Shown here one piece after another: positions 2 through 64,000 of a stretch of 64,000 bases of DNA. Position numbers and translations under genes: made by a program. The number at the start of each line of letters is the position of its first letter. Position 1 is the stretch's first letter. This DNA is from a virus. Below the pieces are notes generated by a model. That model saw only the letters and a list, made by a program, of their open reading frames with translations, searched no databases and had not been told where the DNA came from. Location of the stretch: positions 114,234 through 178,233 of IMG/VR virus record IMGVR_UViG_3300025108_000015; one strand, 5' to 3'.

Positions 2-85
2 AACGCTGATACTGTTTTAAAAAGAGATGGATACTATTGGTTTTGTGAGGAAATTCCTTCAATTGACTTTGAAGAATTAACATAA
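2..85 (+). CDS. 3' end of an upstream gene, truncated by the window edge; hypothetical protein
   Basis: Open frame NADTVLKRDGYYWFCEEIPSIDFEELT* ending TAA at 83-85, followed by a terminator. Confidence 0.6.
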   Translation, partial: NADTVLKRDGYYWFCEEIPSIDFEELT

Positions 86-94
86 ATTTAACAT

Positions 95-123
95 AGGGGG
101 CTTGTATAGTCCCCTTTTTTTTT
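95..123 (+). terminator. Rho-independent terminator
   Basis: Stem AGGGGGC/GTCCCCT around TTGTATA, followed by a long T run. Confidence 0.75.
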
Positions 124-132
124 GTACATTTA
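101..132 (+). promoter_or_regulatory. Bacteroidetes-type sigma70-like promoter, overlapping the terminator
   Basis: CTTG (101-104) - 20 nt - TACATTTA (125-132); resembles TTTG-N19/21-TAnnTTTG. Confidence 0.45.
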
Positions 133-151
133 CATAGTAAATAAGAAACAT

Positions 152-1081
152 ATGACAAACCTCGGATATTGCTGTATCAACATGACCCTTCGTAAGGACA
201 AGATTACTACCAATCGTAGTATGATTAAAAAAACATTCCTTAAAGAAGGTATCAGTAGGTCATCAGACCTTGCATTACAAAATGCTAAAGACCTTGTAGA
301 GATTATCAAATGGAACGAACGTAATGGTTTCAAACTATTCCGTATGTCGTCTGACTTAGTTCCATGGGCTAGTGAGTTCAAGTTATCAGATATGCCAGAC
401 TATACTAAGTTTAGTAATGTACTCAAGGGTGCAGGTACTTTAGCTAAGTCGTATGGTCAACGTATCACTTCACATCCTGGCCCATTCAATGTATTGGTGT
501 CACCTAATGATAGAGTTGTAGATAACACGATTAGAGACCTTTCAATACACGGAGAACACTTTGACCTTATGGGGTTAGAGAGAAGTCATCAGAACCCTAT
601 TAACATCCATTGTAATGGTGTCTATGGTGATAAGATGTCTGCTATGAATCGTTTCATCACAAACTTCAAGAGATTGCCTGAGTCAGTCCAATCACGATTG
701 GTTGTTGAGAACGATGACAAAGCAAGTATGTACTCAGTCAAAGACCTTATGTACCTACACGAACATATTGGTATTCCGATTACGTTTGACTATCACCACC
801 ACAAATTCAATACCGGTGGGTTGTCTGAACAAGAAGCACTTGAGTTGGCTATGTCAACGTGGGGTGACTACAAACCCTTAGTCCATTACTCTGAATCACG
901 TCTATTGGAACAAGAAGGTGTAAAAGCACAAGCACATTCTGATTTTATCTATTCTGAAATCAATACATATGGTCATTCTTTAGACATTGAGGTCGAGGCT
1001 AAGATGAAGGAGTTGACTGTGTTAGATTATCTTTCCAATTTTGGTACACATCCAAAAGGGCATAGTATGGGGAAAGCTTGA
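152..1081 (+). CDS. uvsE: UV-damage endonuclease (UvsE/UVDE family)
   Basis: LGYCCIN, FRMSSDLVPW, HPGPFNVL, ENDDK, DYHHH, HYSES, AHSD and EVEAKMKE motifs; ATG at 152 preferred over the track start at 122. Confidence 0.9.
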   Translation: MTNLGYCCINMTLRKDKITTNRSMIKKTFLKEGISRSSDLALQNAKDLVEIIKWNERNGFKLFRMSSDLVPWASEFKLSDMPDYTKFSNVLKGAGTLAKSYGQRITSHPGPFNVLVSPNDRVVDNTIRDLSIHGEHFDLMGLERSHQNPINIHCNGVYGDKMSAMNRFITNFKRLPESVQSRLVVENDDKASMYSVKDLMYLHEHIGIPITFDYHHHKFNTGGLSEQEALELAMSTWGDYKPLVHYSESRLLEQEGVKAQAHSDFIYSEINTYGHSLDIEVEAKMKELTVLDYLSNFGTHPKGHSMGKA

Positions 1082-52951: not shown

Positions 52952-54046
52952 ATGGCAACATGGAAAAAGGTCATTGTATCCGGTAGTAATATCTCGGATT
53001 TAAAAAATGACTCAAATTATTTATCAAGCGCAGGTGATGGAATTATATCAGCATCATCTGTAAGTTCTACCGCTCAAGGTGAGTTTACCTCATCATTCAA
53101 TGGTGTACTAACTGAACTTAACTTAGGATTAACATCAACTGATGATGTTCAATTCAACTCTGTAACTGCATCAATTCAAGGTAATGTTGTTGGTGATGTA
53201 GTTGGTAATCTAACTGGTACTGCATCTTATGTAGATGGTGATGATGTTAACTTCGATGCGACTGGTAATGGTCAAACTGCAACTGAGTTCTCTGCATCTA
53301 TCTCAGGTCGTATCTTAGGTCTTGAACAAGGACAATATGACTTAGAGTTCTCTGGTTCGACTGGAGATGGTACAATTACTGATGCTGAACACCTTAGTAT
53401 CTTAGGTGGTACAAACGTAGATACAGTAGCAGCCGGTAACAGCCTTACTATTAACTTGGATGATACTATTAGTCTAAGTCAAGTAACTGCATCTATCGTA
53501 TCTGCAAGTAATGGGTTTATTGGTGACTTAACAGGTGATGTAACGGGTAATGCTGACACTGCGACTACCTCATCTTATGTAGCTGCATCTTCACCATCAC
53601 AAGGTACAGTAACAATTACTGGTAACGACATTGACTTGGGTCTTCAAGTAGCTGATTCGCCTGTATTCGCCGATTTAAGACTTACGGGTAATCTTACAGT
53701 TGAAGGTACAAGAACTGAATTGAACGTAGCAAACTTGAACGTAGAAGACGCATTCATTTTATTGAATTCTGGTTCAGCTAGTGGTGATACCGGTATCATT
53801 TTCGGTGGTGCTAACACTACTAATATCAATACTGGTTCAGCTATATTCTATGATGATAGTGATTCAGTATTTTCTTACGCTGCAGATGTTGAAGCGGGTG
53901 ACGTTACAGCAACAGCTGCATCTAAATTAGGTAACATCCAAGTAATGGCTGGTGCTGGTTCTCATAATATGGCCGCAGCAACATTCCAAGGTGTGGGTAC
54001 TATCGCTGTAGATAATGGTGAGTGTATTTGGATTCAAACAGCGTAA
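52952..54046 (+). CDS. Tail-fibre-like protein
   Basis: MATWKKVIVSGS start; trimeric-fibre-like motifs (GDLTGDVTGNADTA, LTGNLTVEGT..LNVED); paralog of 54656. Confidence 0.65.
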   Translation: MATWKKVIVSGSNISDLKNDSNYLSSAGDGIISASSVSSTAQGEFTSSFNGVLTELNLGLTSTDDVQFNSVTASIQGNVVGDVVGNLTGTASYVDGDDVNFDATGNGQTATEFSASISGRILGLEQGQYDLEFSGSTGDGTITDAEHLSILGGTNVDTVAAGNSLTINLDDTISLSQVTASIVSASNGFIGDLTGDVTGNADTATTSSYVAASSPSQGTVTITGNDIDLGLQVADSPVFADLRLTGNLTVEGTRTELNVANLNVEDAFILLNSGSASGDTGIIFGGANTTNINTGSAIFYDDSDSVFSYAADVEAGDVTATAASKLGNIQVMAGAGSHNMAAATFQGVGTIAVDNGECIWIQTA

Positions 54047-54071
54047 TTTATTAATGTTGAAAAGGTTATAT

Positions 54072-54266
54072 ATGAGTTTACATAAAAAGTTGGGATTGTC
54101 CAACAATAAAACTCAAAATGATAAAGAGGGAACCCTCAAGCTCACTAAGGGTGAGCTTGAGTCCCTTCTTATCGGATTGGGTGAAGCTTCATTTAAAGGT
54201 AAGCAAGTTGAGTCAGTATTCAAACTAGCTATGAAGATTCAAAACGAAATTAAAAAATTAAGTTAA
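54072..54266 (+). CDS. Small helical protein, possible fibre chaperone
   Basis: ATG at 54072 (MSLHKKL) preferred over 54015; similar to the next ORF. Confidence 0.55.
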   Translation: MSLHKKLGLSNNKTQNDKEGTLKLTKGELESLLIGLGEASFKGKQVESVFKLAMKIQNEIKKLS

Positions 54267-54273
54267 TTTAATT

Positions 54274-54465
54274 ATGAAAAGTTACGAAGGATTAAATGCA
54301 AGTGATTGGAAGATAGTCCAAATTGCATTAAACAAAATGGAAATTCGTGGTAAGGAAGCGCCTATAATCACAGGTATAATGGCAAAAGTTCAAATGGAAC
54401 TTGAATTATTAGAATTACCCGTAAGTGAACGCCCTAAAAAGGGTGACATCATTACAAAGGAATAA
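54274..54465 (+). CDS. Small helical protein, possible fibre chaperone
   Basis: LNASDW..IALNKMEIRGKEAPII..IMAKVQ aligns with the preceding ORF. Confidence 0.6.
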   Translation: MKSYEGLNASDWKIVQIALNKMEIRGKEAPIITGIMAKVQMELELLELPVSERPKKGDIITKE

Positions 54466-54471
54466 TTTAAG

Positions 54472-54500
54472 AATCCTCTACAAAAGTAGGGGATTTTTTT
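54472..54500 (+). terminator. Rho-independent terminator
   Basis: AATCCTCTAC-AAAA-GTAGGGGATT followed by a T run. Confidence 0.9.
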
Positions 54501-54559
54501 ATTATAAACCAATCTACTACCAAATCTGAATTATCTATGTGGTTTTTATTTTATAGTAA

Positions 54560-54569
54560 ACTATTTATA
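54560..54569 (+). promoter_or_regulatory. Putative late promoter motif
   Basis: ACTATTTATA, 86 nt upstream of 54656. Confidence 0.5.
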
Positions 54570-54589
54570 AGAGATTAATCAAACATAAA

Positions 54590-54647
54590 CCTGGTTGTTG
54601 GCTCGAAAGAGAAGTGGGCATGAAAATGTTACCAACCGCAAATTAGG
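54590..54647 (+). ncRNA. Candidate structured 5' leader RNA (three-way junction with two GAAA tetraloops)
   Basis: P1 GGTTG/CAACC, P2 CTC-GAAA-GAG, P3 GTGGGCAT-GAAA-ATGTTAC; a GC-rich island in an AT-rich spacer; family not recognised. Confidence 0.45.
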
Positions 54648-54655
54648 AAAAGGAT

Positions 54656-56563
54656 ATGCCGAATTGGAAAAAAGTCATCACTTCCGGTAGTGATGCAATT
54701 TTAAATCAAATTACATCATCAGGTGGAATAAACTCCACCGATATTACAATCAATGATTGGGGAAGTGTATCAGCTTCATTAGCATCATTGGATACATTAA
54801 CCTATGGTGATTCTGATGTCAAACTCAAATTAAATACTGAAGGTGTACTTAGTGGGTCTACATTCTCATCACCATCTCAAGGTACTGTTAGAGCTACCAT
54901 AAATGGTGTTAATTCTGATGTAGATACTGGCTTACAATCCGCAGATTCACCTACATTTGATAGTTTAACATTAACAGGTGACCTTACAGTATTAGGTAGT
55001 AAAGTAGACCTACAAGTAGCTGAACTTAATGTTCAAGATAAATTTATAAAAATAGCAAGTGGGTCAGCTAATCCTACGGCCGCTAACGGTGCAGGTATTT
55101 ATATTGATGGGGCTGATGTGTCTTTACATTGGTCTAGTACCAATAGTAGATTTCAATTTGACGATGACCTACATACAGCAGCAACTCTTAACATTGGTAA
55201 CGTAAACCACGCAACAACTGATACTGACAAGTTTTTGGTATTAGACTCTAATGGTGACGTAGACTATCGTACCGGCACTGAGGTCCTTTCAGATATTGGT
55301 GGTACTGGTGCTTCTAACCTTAGTGGTGCAGCAACTGAGATTCCATTCTTTAGTTCAACAAGTGCTATAACGAGTTCAGTTCGGTTAAAGTTAAATAAAA
55401 ATATAACTACCGGTGATGTGTTAGTACACCATGGTCAGTTTAATGTAATCAATGACCCAAGTGTTTCGGGAACATCTGCAATGCAGATTATTGTGGGTTC
55501 TGGTTCAAGTGGTGATGTTTCAAATCCACAATATGATTCGTTCCTATCAATGGAACAAGAAAGTGCTACCATAGTAGGTCTTAGAGCACATGGTACAACA
55601 CCAACATCAGCTCAAATTAAAATGAGAACTGATGTTAGTGATGCTTATTCGATTGGTAGACTAACAAACCCATATGGTGCAAATACTCTTAGAATAAAAC
55701 CAGCTATTATTGCTGAAGGTGGTCTTTCTATAACTGGATCATTAACTATATCGGGTTCTAATACATTAAAAAATATCGGACCAGCACAATTTAGTGGTTC
55801 GGTTAATATTAAAACAGATAAGCAAGTACAAGCAACAACTGATACTGACAAGTTTGTTGTATTGGATGGTGACCAACTTAAATATAGAAGTGGTACGCAA
55901 TTATATGATGATATAGGTGTTACTTCACTATCATCATCAATTGCAAGTGATATTGCTGGGCTTGATGCTGCTAGTGGTAATTACGTTATAAATGATACTG
56001 GAGCATCATCTAATAGATTAGCTATTTGGTCTAATACTGCCCGAATTAAAGGTGATTCTGCTTTTAAAATCCTCGAAAATAAATATGGTCAAGGTTTTCA
56101 ATTTGACCAATGGGGTGGTAACCAAGTTGATACACTTAAATCACCGGCCTTCAAAGGGAATGGTTTGGAACTTGGAGATAATATCCCTGGAACCCCAGCA
56201 CCATTCACAGCGTCTCTCACAATTCATACAAATCACGGAAACACTAGCAACTCAGTAGAAAAAACAGCTGAAGGTCATCAGTATGGAGTAGGCACTCATG
56301 TAATTTATCAAAAAGTGGGTTCGTCTTTCCATATACATTACAATATTTCAGAGGGTAGTGCAATGCGTTCTGGACAATTAACTATTGTTGTTAGTGGTAA
56401 CGAGGTAGCGATGACCGAATATAGTACAACTGATATTGGAACTGGAAGTTCAAGTCCAGCTCAATTCTCAGCAACAGCATCTAACGGTGTGTTAACATTA
56501 TCGATAACATCCGCCGGTGGTGGAACTATTTTGTTTAACGTAGAACGTATGTATAGTATATAA
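54656..56563 (+). CDS. Tail-fibre-like protein
   Basis: MPNWKKVITSGS start; SPSQGTV..GLQ.ADSP.F..L.LTG.LTV shared with 52952; two DTDKF.VLD modules. Confidence 0.65.
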   Translation: MPNWKKVITSGSDAILNQITSSGGINSTDITINDWGSVSASLASLDTLTYGDSDVKLKLNTEGVLSGSTFSSPSQGTVRATINGVNSDVDTGLQSADSPTFDSLTLTGDLTVLGSKVDLQVAELNVQDKFIKIASGSANPTAANGAGIYIDGADVSLHWSSTNSRFQFDDDLHTAATLNIGNVNHATTDTDKFLVLDSNGDVDYRTGTEVLSDIGGTGASNLSGAATEIPFFSSTSAITSSVRLKLNKNITTGDVLVHHGQFNVINDPSVSGTSAMQIIVGSGSSGDVSNPQYDSFLSMEQESATIVGLRAHGTTPTSAQIKMRTDVSDAYSIGRLTNPYGANTLRIKPAIIAEGGLSITGSLTISGSNTLKNIGPAQFSGSVNIKTDKQVQATTDTDKFVVLDGDQLKYRSGTQLYDDIGVTSLSSSIASDIAGLDAASGNYVINDTGASSNRLAIWSNTARIKGDSAFKILENKYGQGFQFDQWGGNQVDTLKSPAFKGNGLELGDNIPGTPAPFTASLTIHTNHGNTSNSVEKTAEGHQYGVGTHVIYQKVGSSFHIHYNISEGSAMRSGQLTIVVSGNEVAMTEYSTTDIGTGSSSPAQFSATASNGVLTLSITSAGGGTILFNVERMYSI

Positions 56564-56611
56564 AATAAATTAAATCCTAAGTTTGGAAAGTGAAAAACAC
56601 GAGGAAATAAA

Positions 56612-57391
56612 ATGTCAAATAAATTTGTAATAAAGAATGGACTTAAAGTACAATCAGGTGGTATAAACACCACTGGTGATTTATCTATTACAGGTTCATT
56701 AGTAGTAACTGGAACACTAACGGCTGAGTCTTATATAGTAAGTTCCTCTGTAACACATAAGACTACCACATTTAGTAGTGGGTCAACCCAATTTGGTGAT
56801 ACTTCTAATGATACCCATGGATTTACCGGGTCAATGGATGTAACTCAACAAATTACTACACCGGATATAAAATTAACTGGATTAAGTAATGCAGGTGTTG
56901 ATACTGATAAGTTCTTAGTATTAGACTCAAATAGTAATGTAGATTTTAGAACTGGTACTCAAGTACGTTCTGATATAGGTGCTGTAGCTATTGGTAATGA
57001 AATCCACCCAATACAATTGACAATAGATACGAAAAATTCACCTTTTGGTTATGTCGCATTTTCAGGATTATCTGATATACAATCACTCCCTAATAGAGCA
57101 TTCACTACCTTTATAGCACCATGTACTGGTTACATCGAAGATATAATTGTATCACCCGAACAAACTAATTCAGTTCAGGACGATTGTGATATTTCACTAT
57201 ATAATGGTGGTTCGCAACAATCCTCTACAAATACGGAAACGTTACAAAGTGCAGGTACTAATGTAACCTTTAACTTTGGGGCTTCAAATTACTCATTTAG
57301 TAACGGAGATAGATTGAGTCTTGAATTTGATAAAAAAACTAATACTTCTGAATTGTACAATATGATGATTGTACTTAGGTTAACAAGTTAA
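56612..57391 (+). CDS. Fibre-family virion protein
   Basis: ITGSLVVTGTLTAE..SSS..FSSGSTQFGD module plus the DTDKFLVLDSN..RTGT module shared with 54656. Confidence 0.65.
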   Translation: MSNKFVIKNGLKVQSGGINTTGDLSITGSLVVTGTLTAESYIVSSSVTHKTTTFSSGSTQFGDTSNDTHGFTGSMDVTQQITTPDIKLTGLSNAGVDTDKFLVLDSNSNVDFRTGTQVRSDIGAVAIGNEIHPIQLTIDTKNSPFGYVAFSGLSDIQSLPNRAFTTFIAPCTGYIEDIIVSPEQTNSVQDDCDISLYNGGSQQSSTNTETLQSAGTNVTFNFGASNYSFSNGDRLSLEFDKKTNTSELYNMMIVLRLTS

Positions 57392-57404
57392 GGGATAAAG
57401 TAAT

Positions 57405-60400
57405 ATGGAATTAATACACGGTTTACATAAAGATACCTTAATAGACATCAATGGGAGTCTCCAAAATATTGGTGACATACAACCGGGTGACGTAGTAAAA
57501 GGTTTTGAAATAAAAAGTGGTGTCGTAAGAGACAATAAAGTTGTTTGGGTAAAAACATCAACAATCGGCTCTTACATTGAATTCACCCTTTCAGATGGTT
57601 CTAACGTAAAATCATCAGTTGATGCTAAAATCTTAACCCTAATGGGTGAGTGGGTTTCACCAATAAATGCATTCAACAAACAAAAAGAATTACACAACGA
57701 CCTACACATTACCTCATTAAGGTATGTAGAAGAATCGTTAGATATTATAAGTATAGAGGTAGAGCCTGACCACAATTACTATGTAGGTAAATTACTATTC
57801 CACAATACGGGTCCAACTGGTCCAGCTGGTCTAAAGGGTCAAAAAGGAGAAGCTGGTAATAAAGGTGTTACTGGAGCTCAAGGACCTCAAGGTGCACAGG
57901 GTCAAAAGGGAGCTACTGGTTCACAAGGACCTGGTGGTTCTACCGGCCCAACCGGACCTCAAGGCCCAACTGGTAACAATGGTGTAACTGGTCCTAAAGG
58001 TGCAACTGGCCCAACCGGCCCCAAAGGTTCAACAGGCCCTCAAGGTGGAACAGGCCCTCAAGGTGCTAAAGGTGTAAACGGACCTACTGGTTTAACTGGC
58101 CCTCAAGGTGCTCAAGGGAATGCCGGTCCTAAAGGTCAAAAAGGAGCTACTGGCTCACAAGGTGGAACTGGTGCTACAGGTGGAAAGGGTTCCACTGGTT
58201 CAAAAGGACCACAAGGTGCTGATGGCCCTCAAGGTGCTAAAGGCCCACAAGGTGCTACTGGCCCACAAGGTGATAAAGGTCAAAAAGGTGCAACTGGCTC
58301 AACCGGTCCTCAAGGTGGAGTAGGTCCACAGGGTGGAGCAGGCCCACAAGGTGCTACTGGCCCACAAGGTGGAACTGGTCCAACAGGCCCTAAAGGTCAA
58401 AAAGGAGCTACCGGCTCACAAGGTGGAACTGGCGCAACAGGTCCTCAAGGTGCTGATGGTCCTCAAGGTGCAACTGGCCCTAAAGGTGCTACTGGCCCAC
58501 AAGGTGCTACTGGCCCACAAGGTGGAAAAGGTCAAAAAGGAGCTACCGGCTCACAAGGTGGAAAAGGTTCACAAGGTGCTAAAGGTGTAAACGGACCTAC
58601 TGGTTTAACTGGCCCTCAAGGTGCTCAAGGAAATCCCGGCCCTAAAGGTGCAACAGGAGCTACTGGCTCACAAGGTGGAACTGGTGCTCAAGGTGGAAAA
58701 GGTTCTACTGGCTCAACTGGCCCACAAGGTGCTGCTGGCCCACAAGGTGCTAAAGGCCCACAAGGTGCTACTGGCCCACAAGGTGGAAAAGGTCAAAAAG
58801 GTGCAACTGGTTCAACCGGTCCTCAAGGTGGGGTAGGTCCTCAAGGTGGAGCAGGCCCACAAGGTGCTACTGGCCCACAAGGTGATACTGGCCCAACAGG
58901 CCCTAAAGGTCAAAAAGGAGCTACCGGCTCACAAGGTGCAACTGGCCCAACAGGACCTCAAGGTGCTGATGGTCCTCAAGGTGTAACTGGCCCTCAAGGT
59001 GCTACTGGCCCTCAAGGTGCTACTGGCCCACAAGGTGGAAAGGGTCAAAAAGGAGCTACCGGCTCACAAGGTGGAAAAGGTTCACAAGGTGCTAAAGGTA
59101 TAAACGGACCTACTGGTTTAACTGGCCCTCAAGGTGCTCAAGGAAATCCTGGCCCTAAAGGTCAAAAAGGAGCTACTGGCTCACAAGGTGGAACTGGTGC
59201 TCAAGGTGGAAAAGGTTCTACTGGCTCAACTGGCCCACAAGGTGCTGCTGGCCCACAAGGTGATAAAGGTCCACAAGGTGCTACTGGCCCACAAGGTGAT
59301 AAAGGTCAAAAAGGTGGAACTGGCTCAACAGGCCCTCAAGGTGGAGTGGGTCCTCAGGGTGGAGCAGGCCCACAAGGTGCTACTGGCCCACAAGGTGATA
59401 CTGGCCCAACCGGTCCTAAAGGTCAAAAAGGAGCTACTGGCTCACAAGGTGCAACTGGTCCAACAGGACCTCAAGGTGCTGATGGTCCTCAAGGTGCAAC
59501 TGGCCCTCAAGGTGCTACTGGCCCTCAAGGTGCTACTGGCCCACAAGGTGGAAAGGGTCAAAAAGGAGCTACCGGCTCACAAGGTGGAAAAGGTTCACAA
59601 GGTGCTAAAGGTGTAAACGGACCTACTGGTTTAACTGGCCCTCAAGGTGCTCAAGGAAATCCCGGCCCTAAAGGTGCAACAGGAGCTACTGGCTCACAAG
59701 GTGGGACTGGTGCTCAAGGTGGAAAAGGTTCTACTGGCTCAACTGGCCCACAAGGTGCTGCTGGCCCACAAGGTGCTAAAGGTCCACAAGGTGCTACTGG
59801 CCCACAAGGTGATAAAGGTCAAAAAGGTGGAACTGGCTCAACAGGCCCTCAAGGTGTAGTAGGTCCTCAAGGTCAAACAGGCCCTCAAGGTGGGACAGGC
59901 CCACAAGGTGATACTGGCCCAACAGGCCCTAAAGGTCAAAAAGGAGCTACTGGCTCACAAGGTGCAACTGGCGCAACCGGTCCTCAAGGTGATACCGGCC
60001 CACAAGGTGCGGTAGGTCCAACCGGTCCAACTCAACCAAAAGGTCAAAAGGGAGCTACTGGCTCACAAGGTGCAACTGGTCCAACAGGACCTCAAGGTGC
60101 TGATGGCCCTCAAGGTGCAACTGGCCCACAAGGTGATAAAGGCCCACAAGGTGCTACTGGCCCACAAGGTGATAAAGGTCAAAAAGGTGGAACAGGCGCA
60201 GATGGTGGTAAAGGTCAACAAGGTGACCAAGGTGCTCAAGGTTTAACAGGTGGAACAGGCCCACAAGGTGACCAAGGTGCTCAAGGTGATACCGGCCCTC
60301 AAGGTGATAAAGGTCAAAAAGGTCAAACTGGCCCTCAAGGTGCTGATGGCCCTCAAGGTGCTGATGGCCCTCAAGGTGCTACTGGCCCACAAGGTGATAA

Positions 60401-61139
60401 AGGTCCTCAAGGTGTAACTGGCCCACAAGGTGATAAAGGTCAAAAAGGTCAAACCGGCCCAGATGGTGAAAAGGGTCAACAAGGTGACCAAGGTGCAACT
60501 GGTCCAACTGGTGGAACAGGCCCACAAGGTGACCAAGGTGCTCAAGGTGATACCGGCCCTCAAGGTGATAAAGGTCAAAAAGGTCAAACTGGCCCTCAAG
60601 GTGCTGATGGCCCTCAAGGTGCTGATGGCCCTCAAGGTGCTACTGGCCCACAAGGTGATAAAGGTCCTCAAGGTGTAACTGGCCCACAAGGTGATAAAGG
60701 TCAAAAAGGTCAAACCGGCTCAGATGGTGAAAAGGGTCAACAAGGTGACCAAGGTGCAACTGGTCCAACTGGTGGAACAGGCCCACAAGGTGACCAAGGT
60801 GCTCAAGGTGATACCGGCCCTCAAGGTGATAAAGGTCAAAAAGGTATAACTGGCCCTCAAGGTGTTGCTGGCCCTCAAGGTGATACTGGTTCCCAAGGTA
60901 ATGTGGGTCCTCAAGGTGATAAAGGTCAAAAAGGTCAAACTGGATTTGAAGGTGCTAAAGGTCAAAAAGGTCAAACCGGCCTACAAGGCTCTAAAGGTCA
61001 AAAAGGTATTTCTGCTCTTGGTACACTAATTAGTGGTGTATCACCTGGATTGACGTGGGATACTACAAGAGGTGTACTTAAATTTAATAATGGTGGTAGT
61101 ACTTATGTACTTCATATGTACGTAAGTGGTTCATACTAA
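57405..61139 (+). CDS. Hint-domain (intein-like, no Cys1) collagen-like fibre protein
   Basis: aa 1-134 Hint-like ([17 protein letters not shown] ... [20 protein letters not shown]|T); aa 136-1203 Gly-X-Y; 41-aa C-terminal cap. Confidence 0.85.
58050..59960 (+). repeat. Higher-order 513-nt (171-aa) tandem repeat in collagen 1, about 3.7 copies
   Basis: Marker GACCTACTGGTTTAACTGGC at 58081, 58594, 59107 and 59620. Confidence 0.9.
60080..60850 (+). repeat. Higher-order 261-nt (87-aa) tandem repeat in collagen 1, about 3 copies
   Basis: Marker GATGGTG..AA.GGTCAACAAGG at 60201, 60462 and 60723. Confidence 0.85.
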
Positions 61140-61157
61140 TATAGATAAACAAGTAAT

Positions 61158-64000
61158 ATGGCAGGATTAAATACACAACTCGTAAGATTACCAAATAGTT
61201 CATCAGTTACGATTAACACTCTACAAAGTGGGTCATCAGTAAGTGGTGTTGTATTACCAGGTTTAGGTTTAAATGAACAAGACTTTAGAAATTGGTCTTC
61301 TACTGATATATCTTCAACCTCACTTGGCGTAGCCAGTGTTGTATTTGAAGCAACCCATAGTGGTAGTGTCATCGAATTCAATAGTGGTGACCTTACAGTA
61401 TCACAACATCAAAAAATCTTAATTAAAGATTCGAGTGGTTCGTATTACTTTACACCTGCTAATACTGTTAATTTAAATTCTGATTATTTAGTAAAGTACA
61501 CCGATAGTGGTATAGTTGAAGAACTAATCACTTCAGCATACGAAATACAAAACCAATCCATACATACCATTGCTATTGAAGACATTGACGTTTACTTAGC
61601 AGATGGATACATAGTTCATAATCCACCTGGATATAATATTTTCAGTTGTGACCCAGCTACCGGCTATATGTACTATGGTGATAGATTTATGCTTGATGTA
61701 GATCCTGGCCCAAACTCTTTGCTTTGTTACGAGGCTGTATTCGATGAAGTAGGTACTATTCCAGATAGAGCTCCCGACAATTGTGTATTTACAGGCAACC
61801 CTGTCGAGGAAGCTTCCTTTGGTATCGTTCTTGCAGAACAATGTGGTGATTCTCCTTTTGGCGATACGGATACTTCACCGGGTCCTGCCGGTCTAGCAGG
61901 ACAAAAGGGTCAAAAAGGTAATGATAATAAGGGGTATAAAGGTAGTACTGGTGGTCAAGGTCCTAATGGATTAGAAGGAGCAAAAGGTTCAACTGGCGCA
62001 CAAGGTCCTACTGGTGGACAAGGTCCTACTGGTCCCCAAGGTGCATCAGGTTCAACGGGACCTCAAGGGCCAAAAGGTTCAGCCGGCCCATCTCCTGGTG
62101 GTGACCAAGGTGCAACTGGCCCCACCGGTCCTCAAGGTAATTCCGGAAACCAAGGTCCTAAAGGTGTTCAAGGCCCACAAGGTGCAGTTGGTCCATCACC
62201 TGCAGGTCAAAAAGGTGCAACTGGCCCACAAGGTGCTCAAGGACCATCTGGTGGTGTCGGAGACGTTGGTGCAGCTGGTTCTAAAGGTGTTCAAGGCCCA
62301 CAAGGTGATGAAGGTGCAGTAGGTGCATCACCAAAAGGTGCTGCTGGTCAAAAGGGAGCTACTGGTTCAACCGGCCCTAAAGGTGTTCAAGGTCCTAAAG
62401 GTGTACAAGGCCCTAAAGGTGTTCAAGGTCCTAAAGGTGTAAATGGACCATCGCCAGCAGGTCAAAAAGGAGCTACCGGGTCCAAAGGAGATACTGGCCC
62501 TCAAGGCCCTAAAGGTATTCAAGGTCCTAAAGGTGTTCAAGGCCCACAAGGTGATGAAGGTGCCGTAGGTGCATCACCTAAAGGTCAAAAAGGTGAAACT
62601 GGTGCTACTGGCTCTAAAGGAGATACTGGCCCACAAGGTAATTCAGGAAATCAAGGTCCTAAAGGTGTTCAAGGCCCACAAGGTGCAGTTGGTCCATCAC
62701 CTGCAGGCCAAAAAGGTGCAACTGGCCCACAAGGTGCTGAAGGACCATCTGGTGCCAATGGTGATAAAGGTGTTCAAGGTCCTAAAGGTGTTCAAGGTGG
62801 AGTAGGTGATGAAGGTGCCGTAGGCGCATCACCTAAAGGTGCTGCTGGTCAAAAGGGAGCTACTGGTTCAACCGGCCCTAAAGGTGTTCAAGGTCCTAAA
62901 GGCGTTCAAGGCCCTAAAGGTGTTCAAGGTCCTAAAGGTAAAAATGGAGCATCACCAGCAGGTCAAAAAGGTGCTACTGGCCCTAAAGGAGATACTGGCC
63001 CTCAAGGCCCTAAAGGTATTCAAGGTCCCAAGGGTGTTCAAGGCCCACAAGGTGATGAAGGTGCAGTAGGTGCATCACCTAAAGGTCAAAAAGGTGAAAC
63101 TGGTGCTACTGGCTCTAAAGGAGATACTGGCCCACAAGGTAATTCAGGAAATCAAGGTCCTAAAGGTGTTCAAGGCCCACAAGGTGCAGTTGGTCCATCA
63201 CCTGCAGGCCAAAAAGGTGCAACTGGCCCACAAGGTGCTGAAGGACCATCTGGTGCCAATGGTGATAAAGGTGTTCAAGGTCCTAAAGGTGTTCAAGGTG
63301 GAGTAGGTGATGAAGGTGCCGTAGGCGCATCACCTAAAGGTGCTGCTGGTCAAAAGGGAGCTACTGGCCTTCAAGGTCCTGTTGGTGGTCAAGGTGAAGA
63401 TGGTGTTCAAGGCCCTAAAGGTGTTCAAGGTCCTAAAGGTGTAAATGGTCCATCACCAGCAGGTCAAAAAGGAGCTACTGGCCCTAAAGGAGATACTGGC
63501 CCTCAAGGCCCACTTGGTGACCAAGGTCCTAAAGGTATAACTGGCCCACAAGGTTCATCTGCTCCTGGTCAAAAAGGAGCTACTGGTCCTAAAGGAGATA
63601 CTGGCCCGCAAGGCCCTAAAGGTGTTCAAGGCCCTAAAGGTGTTCAAGGTGGAGTAGGTGATGAAGGTGCAGTAGGTGAATCACCTAAAGGTCAAAAAGG
63701 TGAAACGGGTGCTCAAGGACCATCGGGTATTTCAGGTGATAGTGGAAATAAAGGTATTCAAGGTTCTAAAGGTGTTCAAGGTCCTAAAGGTATAAAAGGT
63801 ATAATTGGATTATCACCTAAAGGTCAAAAAGGTGAAACTGGCGGTCAAGGTCCTAAAGGTGTTCAAGGTCCTAAAGGCGTTCAAGGCCCTAAAGGTGTTC
63901 AAGGTGGAGTAGGTGATGAAGGTGCAGTAGGTGAATCACCTAAAGGTCAAAAAGGTGAAACGGGTGCTCAAGGACCATCAGGTATTTCAGGTGATAGTGG
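61158..64000 (+). CDS. Second Hint-domain collagen-like protein, truncated at the window end and missing from the ORF track
   Basis: ATG at 61158, open to 64000; Hint-like aa 1-155 ending IHTIAIEDIDVYLADGYIVHN|P; ~86-aa domain with 4 Cys; interrupted Gly-X-Y from 61881. Confidence 0.85.
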   Translation, partial: MAGLNTQLVRLPNSSSVTINTLQSGSSVSGVVLPGLGLNEQDFRNWSSTDISSTSLGVASVVFEATHSGSVIEFNSGDLTVSQHQKILIKDSSGSYYFTPANTVNLNSDYLVKYTDSGIVEELITSAYEIQNQSIHTIAIEDIDVYLADGYIVHNPPGYNIFSCDPATGYMYYGDRFMLDVDPGPNSLLCYEAVFDEVGTIPDRAPDNCVFTGNPVEEASFGIVLAEQCGDSPFGDTDTSPGPAGLAGQKGQKGNDNKGYKGSTGGQGPNGLEGAKGSTGAQGPTGGQGPTGPQGASGSTGPQGPKGSAGPSPGGDQGATGPTGPQGNSGNQGPKGVQGPQGAVGPSPAGQKGATGPQGAQGPSGGVGDVGAAGSKGVQGPQGDEGAVGASPKGAAGQKGATGSTGPKGVQGPKGVQGPKGVQGPKGVNGPSPAGQKGATGSKGDTGPQGPKGIQGPKGVQGPQGDEGAVGASPKGQKGETGATGSKGDTGPQGNSGNQGPKGVQGPQGAVGPSPAGQKGATGPQGAEGPSGANGDKGVQGPKGVQGGVGDEGAVGASPKGAAGQKGATGSTGPKGVQGPKGVQGPKGVQGPKGKNGASPAGQKGATGPKGDTGPQGPKGIQGPKGVQGPQGDEGAVGASPKGQKGETGATGSKGDTGPQGNSGNQGPKGVQGPQGAVGPSPAGQKGATGPQGAEGPSGANGDKGVQGPKGVQGGVGDEGAVGASPKGAAGQKGATGLQGPVGGQGEDGVQGPKGVQGPKGVNGPSPAGQKGATGPKGDTGPQGPLGDQGPKGITGPQGSSAPGQKGATGPKGDTGPQGPKGVQGPKGVQGGVGDEGAVGESPKGQKGETGAQGPSGISGDSGNKGIQGSKGVQGPKGIKGIIGLSPKGQKGETGGQGPKGVQGPKGVQGPKGVQGGVGDEGAVGESPKGQKGETGAQGPSGISGDS
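62330..63400 (+). repeat. Higher-order 501-nt (167-aa) repeat in collagen 2
   Basis: GCATCACCTAAAGGTCAAAAAGGTGAAACTGG at 62571 and 63072. Confidence 0.85.

Follow-up and report, generated by a model that had tools for sequence, protein, structure and literature searches.

The last 64 kb of a 178,233-bp IMG/VR virus record (IMGVR_UViG_3300025108_000015), a stretch of 64,000 nucleotides (nt) referred to here as the window, ends in two tandem genes: gene 1 (57405-61139; 1244 amino acids (aa)) and gene 2, which starts at 61158, reaches the end of the window and resumes at the contig start (~1245 aa when read across that junction). Both lie on the + strand, as do all genes and domains given below with window coordinates. 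Each encodes a long collagen-like protein that opens with a Hedgehog/intein (Hint) domain, and from the sequences we judge that each of these Hint caps, on balance, probably cleaves itself off its collagen fibre at the C-terminal end of the cap, by asparagine cyclisation. Each gene would then specify the precursor of a collagen-like fibre subunit with an N-terminal Hint domain of the intein or bacterial intein-like (BIL) type, which retains of protein splicing only the C-terminal half-reaction. What is established directly is the fold, the set of residues, their conservation and the gene order, and it is from these that we infer the cleavage.

The domain at the start of gene 1 comprises 129 residues, Gly6 to Asn134 (57420..57806), as delimited by AlphaFold2 (AF2) modelling, Foldseek, VIA-align, phmmer and invariance within its family. 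The AF2 model has a predicted local distance difference test (pLDDT) score of 93.4, and Foldseek ranked only BIL domains and inteins at the top (BIL2, Ssp DnaB and Npu DnaE), with a template modelling (TM) score of 0.81 to Npu DnaE. Superposition by VIA-align gave Z scores of 16-19.9 and a root-mean-square deviation of 1.6-2.0 Å over ~130 residues. In these superpositions residues 6..134 of the model fall on the first to the last residue of many inteins and BIL domains, so that Gly6 corresponds to position 1 and Asn134 to the terminal Asn. A phmmer search against the PDB sequences aligned blocks B and F of gene 1 to a DnaE intein (E 0.0026), and in this alignment Ser71 stands at B:7, Ala74 at B:10, Ser116 at F:4, His123 at F:13, Phe132 at G:5, His133 at G:6 and Asn134 at G:7, with Thr135 at +1. 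The family libraries (Pfam, PHROGs and NCBIfam) gave sub-threshold intein hints only, Intein_splicing being returned at E 0.05, below the cut-off. A trimer prediction for three copies of gene 1 residues 1-141 scored 0.23 against a mark of 0.42, and was counted neither way.

Ahead of position 1 the structural alignment sets off a leader of five residues, MELIH (57405..57419), in which Ile4 and His5 are invariant in the family. Behind Asn134, the invariant Thr135 (57807..57809) is the +1 residue of the putative Asn134-Thr135 scissile bond, and collagen of the Gly-X-Y type then runs from residue 136 to residue 1203 (57810..61013; 1068 residues; Pfam PF01391, E 4e-133). An earlier note on this DNA had placed the collagen right after the scissile bond, and Gly-X-Y indeed begins at nt 57810. 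Pro is mostly found at X, with Gln, Thr and Lys at Y; the sole break in the repeat is at residues 877-879 (60033-60041), where there is no Gly at the repeat position. The gene closes with a C-terminal knob of 41 non-collagen residues plus the stop codon (61014..61139), a segment that matches no Pfam family, is conserved in the homologues and resembles the C-terminus of gene 2.

In gene 2, the Hint-like domain runs from Met1 to Asn155 (61158..61622), as placed by hhalign, AF2, fold matches and family invariance. Searched directly, this N-terminal domain has no match in Pfam, PHROGs, NCBIfam or the PDB sequences. Alignment of the gene 2 family to the gene 1 family by hhalign gave 95% probability (E 2.7e-8), end to end and with His-Asn on His-Asn. 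The AF2 model has a pLDDT of 68, with residues 1-21 weak, and matches only inteins, BIL domains and Hedgehog domains (best Foldseek E 8e-4); when VIA-align was run without Foldseek against 48,161 chains, Z scores were 11.6-7.2 in the top 28, and unrelated folds reached at most 3.5. Residues 4/5..155 of the model superpose on intein residue 4 to the last residue, and Ala/Gly occupy positions 2-3 and Met1/Ala2 position 1. By the hhalign alignment, gene 2 has Gln at B:10, Asp144 at F:13 (the site of the block-F His) and Val153 at G:5, followed by His154, Asn155 and Pro156. Pro156, at +1, begins a spacer of 86 residues with four Cys (61623..61880), which is predicted to be β-rich (pLDDT 60-78) and matches no Pfam family; its equivalent in the homologues is ~40-110 aa long and Cys-rich in all. 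Collagen with regular short breaks follows (61881..64000; PF01391, E 1.5e-77) and is cut by the end of the window and contig. Read past the junction, gene 2 ends in a C-terminal knob resembling that of gene 1.

That both genes open with a Hint domain had been proposed in the earlier note, and the AF2 models, the intein and BIL matches in Foldseek and VIA-align and the hhalign alignment all agree with it. The domain ends also fall where it had put them, the codons of Asn134 and Asn155 ending at 57806 and 61622, respectively. It had further suggested structure prediction and profile searches. The former returned a Hint fold for both domains, and the latter gave the sub-threshold Intein_splicing hint for gene 1, no match for gene 2 and no PF07591.

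Both proteins combine a horseshoe-like, all-β Hint fold over the whole domain with the collagen triple-helix repeat PF01391, and we compared their residues with those that define the known classes. A class 1 intein has Cys, Ser or Thr at position 1 and Thr-x-x-His in block B (B:7, B:10); these sites hold Gly6 and Ser71/Ala74 in gene 1, and Met1/Ala2 and Gln in gene 2. The first-step residues, namely the position-1 nucleophile and His B:10, are therefore missing from both genes, as the earlier note had read them. A class 1 intein also ends in His-Asn before a Cys, Ser or Thr at +1: His-Asn is found in both families, with Thr at +1 in gene 1 and Pro or a variable residue in the gene 2 family. 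It lies between two exteins, a position that neither domain has, at most five residues preceding it. The class 3 triplet of Trp in block B, Cys at F:4 and Thr at G:5 is absent: F:4 is occupied by Ser116 in gene 1 and by varying residues in the gene 2 family, and G:5 by Phe132 and Val153, respectively. Class 2 inteins require His B:10 and Asp F:4, and both are absent. Neither window domain reaches the gathering cut-off of PF07591, which has no match in the whole genome; of the Cys1 and terminal His-Asn that mark a type A BIL or PT-HINT domain, His-Asn is present and Cys1 is not. The C-terminal domain Peptidase S74 (PF13884) is absent from both window genes. The residues for Asn self-cleavage, as in an asparagine peptide lyase of MEROPS clan PD, are present and conserved. 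Three residues have been assigned to Asn cyclisation, His F:13, His G:6 and Asn G:7 (PMC4031507). Gene 1 has 3/3 of them, and gene 2 has 2/3, with Asp at the third site. The intein block F/G signature claimed for both genes thus stands as to the terminal His-Asn, and as to the block-F His it stands for gene 1 only, gene 2 having Asp144 there.

The gene 1 type of domain (family 1) was found in 22 viral contigs, several of them 167-181 kb long, which provided 18 distinct sequences of 43-99% identity. Every copy begins no more than five residues before position 1 and ends in HN followed by Thr-Gly-Pro, directly into collagen. No in-frame upstream extension of the open reading frame was found in the 22 loci, so that there is nothing to supply an N-extein; an N-extein had been said to be lacking altogether, which holds for the upstream frame, and is to be amended in that gene 1 has five residues ahead of the domain and gene 2 none or one. 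The 18 distinct sequences are all identical at 31 of 141 positions. Among these are Ile4, His5, Ser71, Ser116 and Asp122-His123-Asn124, and also His133, Asn134, Thr135, Gly136 and Pro137, and conserved positions are concentrated around the C-terminal active site. No residue other than Gly or Ala occurs at position 1, and B:10 is Ala, Ile, Ser or Val, never His. Synonymous changes are seen in the codons of His123, His133, Asn134 and Thr135, where both His, both Asn and all four Thr codons are in use, so that selection acts on the amino acid.

The gene 2 type (family 2) comprises 12 sequences with identity down to 20% (median 31%), and its Hint part has 16 invariant positions, including Glu141, Asp144, Val153, His154 and Asn155. 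At +1 these loci have P, A, F, D or V, and a further homologue, P0005, has N. In both families, selection has kept the C-terminal half-set of catalytic residues across deep divergence.

With the front chemistry lost and the residues at the back invariant over such divergence, the simplest reading is that of a C-terminal self-cleaving module. Gly or Ala at position 1, together with the lack of a block-B His, would make a (thio)ester at the front of the domain impossible, and splicing and N-terminal cleavage would thereby be excluded. The terminal Asn (Asn134 in gene 1, Asn155 in gene 2) would attack its own backbone carbonyl, aided by the penultimate His and, in block F, by His123 of gene 1 or Asp144 of gene 2; a succinimide would form, and the bond between Asn and the +1 residue would be broken. 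The expected products are the released Hint domain, ~15-17 kDa in mass, and a fibre, which in gene 1 would start at Thr135 directly on the triple helix and in gene 2 at Pro156 on the Cys-rich spacer. Candidate purposes of the cap are to aid folding or solubility, to block premature end-on assembly, or to leave a defined N-terminus for docking. For the two roles proposed in the earlier note, a trimer-registration chaperone and an assembly timer, no support was found.

There is precedent for such a reaction in type A BILs, which cleave C-terminally by Asn cyclisation and need no nucleophile at +1 (PMC4031507). The earlier note had supposed that Pro at +1 may block cleavage of gene 2, leaving one processed and one capped fibre. 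The family speaks against this, with +1 varying (P, A, F, D, V, N) beside an invariant Val-His-Asn, and so do the FlhB/YscU asparagine lyases, in which Asn-Pro is the natural scissile bond and is broken by Asn cyclisation (PMC3207474). Given that these lyases cut at Asn-Pro and that +1 is unconserved in family 2, Pro at +1 is no obstacle in principle. The wider claim, that the domains are built for C-terminal cleavage only, is carried as far as the Hint fold and a half-set of residues conserved under selection at the domain boundary; the reaction itself is what we draw from them.

Several observations weigh against self-cleavage. Without its cap, the fibre has no recognisable N-terminal attachment domain, while neighbouring fibre genes share the motif WKKVI-SGS. 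The invariant Thr at +1, Ile4 and His5 of family 1 are not demanded by plain cleavage. Three gene 2 homologues have Phe at +1, and an N-terminal Phe exposed to the cytoplasm is destabilising in bacteria (an N-degron). Searching both N-terminal domains by tblastn against 50,697 phage records found no cultured phage with the domain: gene 2 had no match, and gene 1 a lone weak match to the annotated intein of Phage NCTB (E 6e-3). C-terminal cleavage is tightly coupled to earlier steps in several inteins, and in class 2 inteins it drops sharply on mutation of His B:10 or Asp F:4 (PMC4031507). Both B:10 and F:4 are non-canonical in the Hint-collagen domains.

Some of these points would be accommodated if the Hint domains were catalytically retired and kept on the mature fibre as a globular N-terminal head, acting as an adaptor or adhesin, with His-Asn kept for structure. 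Such an adaptor would dock the fibre to the baseplate, neck or capsid. Phage fibres are normally anchored by the N-terminus, and the collagens have neither another N-terminal attachment module nor the N-terminal motif shared by their neighbours. The loss of the N-terminal nucleophile and of the block-B His, the conservation of Ile4-His5 and the first strand, and the dependence of C-terminal cleavage on earlier steps in some inteins would all fit a retired domain. However, Asn-to-Ala mutants of inteins fold normally (many such PDB entries are among our structural matches), so that structure alone does not require His-Asn, and yet His-Asn is invariant at 20% identity, though the domain has otherwise largely diverged. 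Nor does the block-F helper vary, conserved positions gather at the C-terminal active site, and the triple helix of gene 1 starts one residue past Asn134, which leaves no linker for three globular heads. We regard a retained head, the main rival to self-cleavage, as less likely than not.

An identical catalytic inventory would serve a cap that is released only on a signal, one that puts the scissile bond under strain or activates it, and the Hint domain would then be an assembly checkpoint or timer. The signal could come from the triple helix, once its zipping from the C-terminal knob reaches the cap, from attachment to the particle, or from a shift in pH, metal or redox state. Intein reactions are documented to be controllable by zinc, by pH and by redox (PMC4031507, PMC8616854), a Cys-rich insert is found in the Hint domain of some family 1 homologues, a Cys-rich spacer follows the family 2 scissile bond, and Gly-X-Y begins at +2 in gene 1. 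Gene 1 of the window is itself without the Cys insert. Conditional cleavage of this general kind receives little credence from us. A more far-reaching proposal, which we think unlikely, is that each cap is a natural Asn-lyase switch of a single turnover, tied to the folding of the collagen. Within it, nucleation of the triple helix would take place at the small C-terminal knob and zipping would proceed from there to the N-terminus, a step that we hold to be speculative; to a similarly small degree one may suppose that the three Hint domains, once brought together, would have the bond between Asn and +1 strained and cut, so that only the fully folded fibre would be released. There is likewise an outside chance that the caps, together with the bacterial-looking proteins P0050 and P0054 described below, make up a new functional class of Hint domain beside inteins, BILs and Hedgehog domains, the 'C-cleavage-only propeptide'.

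Finally, gene 1 might hold an unusual true intein of a class 2-like type, in which Thr at +1 would attack the His5-Gly6 bond and join the five-residue leader to the collagen. Class 2 inteins also have Gly or Ala at position 1, and the nucleophilic Thr at +1, Ile4-His5 and Ser71 (B:7) are all invariant. Splicing of this type, however, needs His B:10 and Asp F:4 (PMC4031507), where gene 1 has the variable Ala74 and Ser116; gene 2 keeps the domain at the same place without leader or +1 nucleophile; and an intein-free allele was not found, viral contigs searched with the gene 1 C-terminal knob for Hint-less alleles having returned only gene 1's own family. We consider it very improbable that gene 1 splices. 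Separately, a partner Hint domain with Cys1 for ligation in trans was considered and dropped, as a six-frame search of the 178-kb genome, using PF07591, PF14890, a profile of the alignment A1 described below and hidden Markov models of both families, found only the two known domains.

C-terminal self-cleavage, the reading that we prefer, can be set against the wider relatives of the domains. An exhaustive phmmer search with the gene 1 domain gave 62 matches. The close ones are N-terminal fragments with the same architecture, and the distant ones are internal domains of the form CF..T ... HNK, which Pfam places in PT-HINT or Intein_splicing; the nearest non-phage relatives are PT-HINT or type A BIL domains with Cys1 and a terminal His-Asn. 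In an alignment of the close phage homologues with the distant relatives (A1), 18 of the 30 members match PF07591 (best E 1.5e-41). A further set of proteins, P0050 and P0054 (also P0025, P0033 and P0034), is bacterial-looking, with a signal peptide followed by a Hint domain in which Gly or Gln replaces Cys1, the block-B His is absent and the terminal His-Asn is present. After the Hint domain come a hydrophobic stretch with a common FEGLA motif and then a C-terminal domain. This set suggests that the cleavage-only inventory may exist beyond phage collagens. The Hint-collagen domain itself has a wide distribution within one clade of uncultured marine phages (~170-180 kb).

The homologues vary in several other respects. 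Many in family 1 carry a Cys-rich insert of ~15 residues (CGCGDCKCG type) between Hint blocks B and F (for example P0008, P0009 and P0013, and the loci L015 and L019-L025); the insert, absent from gene 1 of the window, may be a metal site. In P0038, the sequence following HN-Thr is not collagen. The gene 2 homologue P0003, of 494 residues, has a Hint-like domain at its N-terminus and Peptidase_S74 at its C-terminus (30.6 bits; cut-off 22), which would place two different self-processing modules on a single short collagen fibre. A β-rich non-collagen domain of ~200 residues is inserted in mid-collagen in the gene 2 homologues P0004, P0005 and L040 (1449-2909), and no such insert is found in the visible part of window gene 2. 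One apparent stand-alone Hint gene, P0069 (158 aa, on a 10-kb contig), ends just past His-Asn. It was rejected as a natural fission, since off-frame collagen and runs of X downstream of it on this contig, L040, indicate an assembly or frameshift break.

Also encoded in the window are baseplate wedge, large terminase and major capsid proteins of the T4-like type, the capsid protein being closest to those of Microcystis and Flavobacterium phages (~56% identity to Microcystis phage Mel-JY01 and Flavobacterium phage immuto). A megablast search against deposited phages found no near relative of the genome, which is that of an uncultured marine T4-like phage. From 52952 to 64000 the + strand carries consecutive fibre genes. 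Three fibre-like genes lie 5' of the collagens (52952-54046, 54656-56563 and 56612-57391), none of which matched a Pfam or PHROG family. The last of them encodes 259 aa (56612..57391) and ends 13 nt before gene 1, and such a gene precedes the Hint-collagen pair in every related locus. An N-terminal WKKVI-SGS motif is common to two of the three, and the genes at 54656 and 56612 have a DTDKF-VLD...RTGT motif in common; in the related loci, the gene directly 5' of Hint-collagen 1 has one or other of these N-termini.

The gaps before the two collagen genes are 13 nt (57392-57404) and 18 nt (61140-61157), and both share the A/T-rich context AAGTAATATGG. No Shine-Dalgarno motif was found in either gap, and no terminator-like site was found between the upstream fibre gene, gene 1 and gene 2. 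The short gaps and the lack of a terminator-like site suggest that the collagen genes are co-transcribed with the upstream fibre gene. The order of fibre gene, Hint-collagen 1 and Hint-collagen 2 is kept in 11/11 related phage contigs, counting only loci long enough to show it. The earlier note had recommended a survey of related contigs for the same fusion, and this order, with family 1 in 22 contigs, is what the survey brought out.

Gene 2 was completed by reading across the circular junction into the start of the same record (L042). The 127-bp 'direct terminal repeat' of the record (window 63874-64000 and L042 1-127) sits within one of the collagen repeats that make up gene 2. An internal gene repeat, and not true genome ends, may be what underlies the circular closure and the '100% complete' call, and the number of repeats in gene 2 is uncertain. 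The order across the junction, with gene 2 followed by a 2-oxoglutarate (2OG) oxygenase gene, agrees with that in related contigs. This gene, directly after gene 2, encodes a 2OG-Fe(II) oxygenase (PF13640; L042 1058-1654), and the second gene after the collagen pair encodes a glycosyltransferase (GT4/GT1) fused to an OGFOD2-like oxygenase domain (L042 1665-3356). A 2OG-Fe(II) oxygenase is also found 3' of gene 2 in L011 and L040. The Hint-collagen fibres thus adjoin a cassette of 2OG-oxygenase and glycosyltransferase. In both collagens Pro is nearly confined to X, and Lys is frequent at Y. The oxygenase and glycosyltransferase genes, taken with Lys at Y, suggest by analogy that the collagens may undergo Lys hydroxylation and glycosylation; the Lys residues of mimivirus collagen are reportedly hydroxylated and glycosylated.

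Hint domains are known to act in splicing (inteins), in ligation or cleavage at both ends (BIL and PT-HINT domains) and in cholesterol attachment (Hedgehog). If the proposed cleavage is correct, a natural Hint domain selected for Asn cyclisation alone, serving as a removable N-terminal pro-piece, would add a functional class to these, would open a new maturation route for phage fibres and microbial collagens, and would offer a ready-made natural counterpart of engineered self-cleaving intein tags. A search for literature on Hint or intein-like domains with collagen or phage fibres found no Hint-collagen fusion in the searchable papers, and within them the architecture is undescribed, as had been supposed.

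The closest known systems are the type A BIL/PT-HINT domains of PF07591 (Clostridium thermocellum BIL, 2lwy; Tetrahymena BUBL BIL2, 6y75), which have the same Hint fold; against the BIL structures, gene 1 scores Z 18.7-19.9 and gene 2 scores Z 9.9-11.2. Both window domains share the terminal His-Asn with them, and the Asn cyclisation of BILs proceeds without a +1 nucleophile (PMC4031507). BIL and PT-HINT domains differ in that they start with Cys, occupy internal or near-terminal positions in large proteins, and are active in cutting or ligation at the N-terminal side too, whereas the Hint-collagen caps have Gly or Ala at position 1, no block-B His, a position at the very N-terminus and a collagen fibre as cargo.

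Mini-inteins with Cys1 changed to Ala are used as self-removing purification tags. In such engineered cleavage-only inteins the front is likewise disabled, His-Asn is kept and the downstream part is released. Those are laboratory mutants, whereas the phage caps would be natural and selected, and the helper residues of the caps differ, with Ser at F:4 and, in gene 2, Asp at F:13. Off-pathway C-terminal cleavage of inteins has been described as well (PMC4031507). Among the asparagine peptide lyases (the coat proteins of MEROPS N1, N2, N5, N7 and N8, and FlhB/YscU of N6), self-cleavage through an Asn succinimide matures a structural protein, and the Asn-Pro site of FlhB/YscU is the same as the gene 2 junction (PMC3207474). 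Their folds are unrelated to ours, only clan PD (inteins) having the Hint fold. Peptidase S74 (PF13884; endosialidase and tail fibres) is similarly a self-removing terminal domain on a trimeric phage fibre, and differs in being C-terminal, in using Ser-Lys hydrolysis and in its fold. The N- and C-propeptides of procollagen are also terminal globular domains removed from a collagen precursor, and vertebrate fibrillar collagen is comparable in length to the ~1000-residue Hint-collagen fibres. The likeness to the propeptides is one of analogy only: the procollagen propeptides are unrelated in sequence and are cut by separate proteinases, whereas the phage caps would remove themselves.

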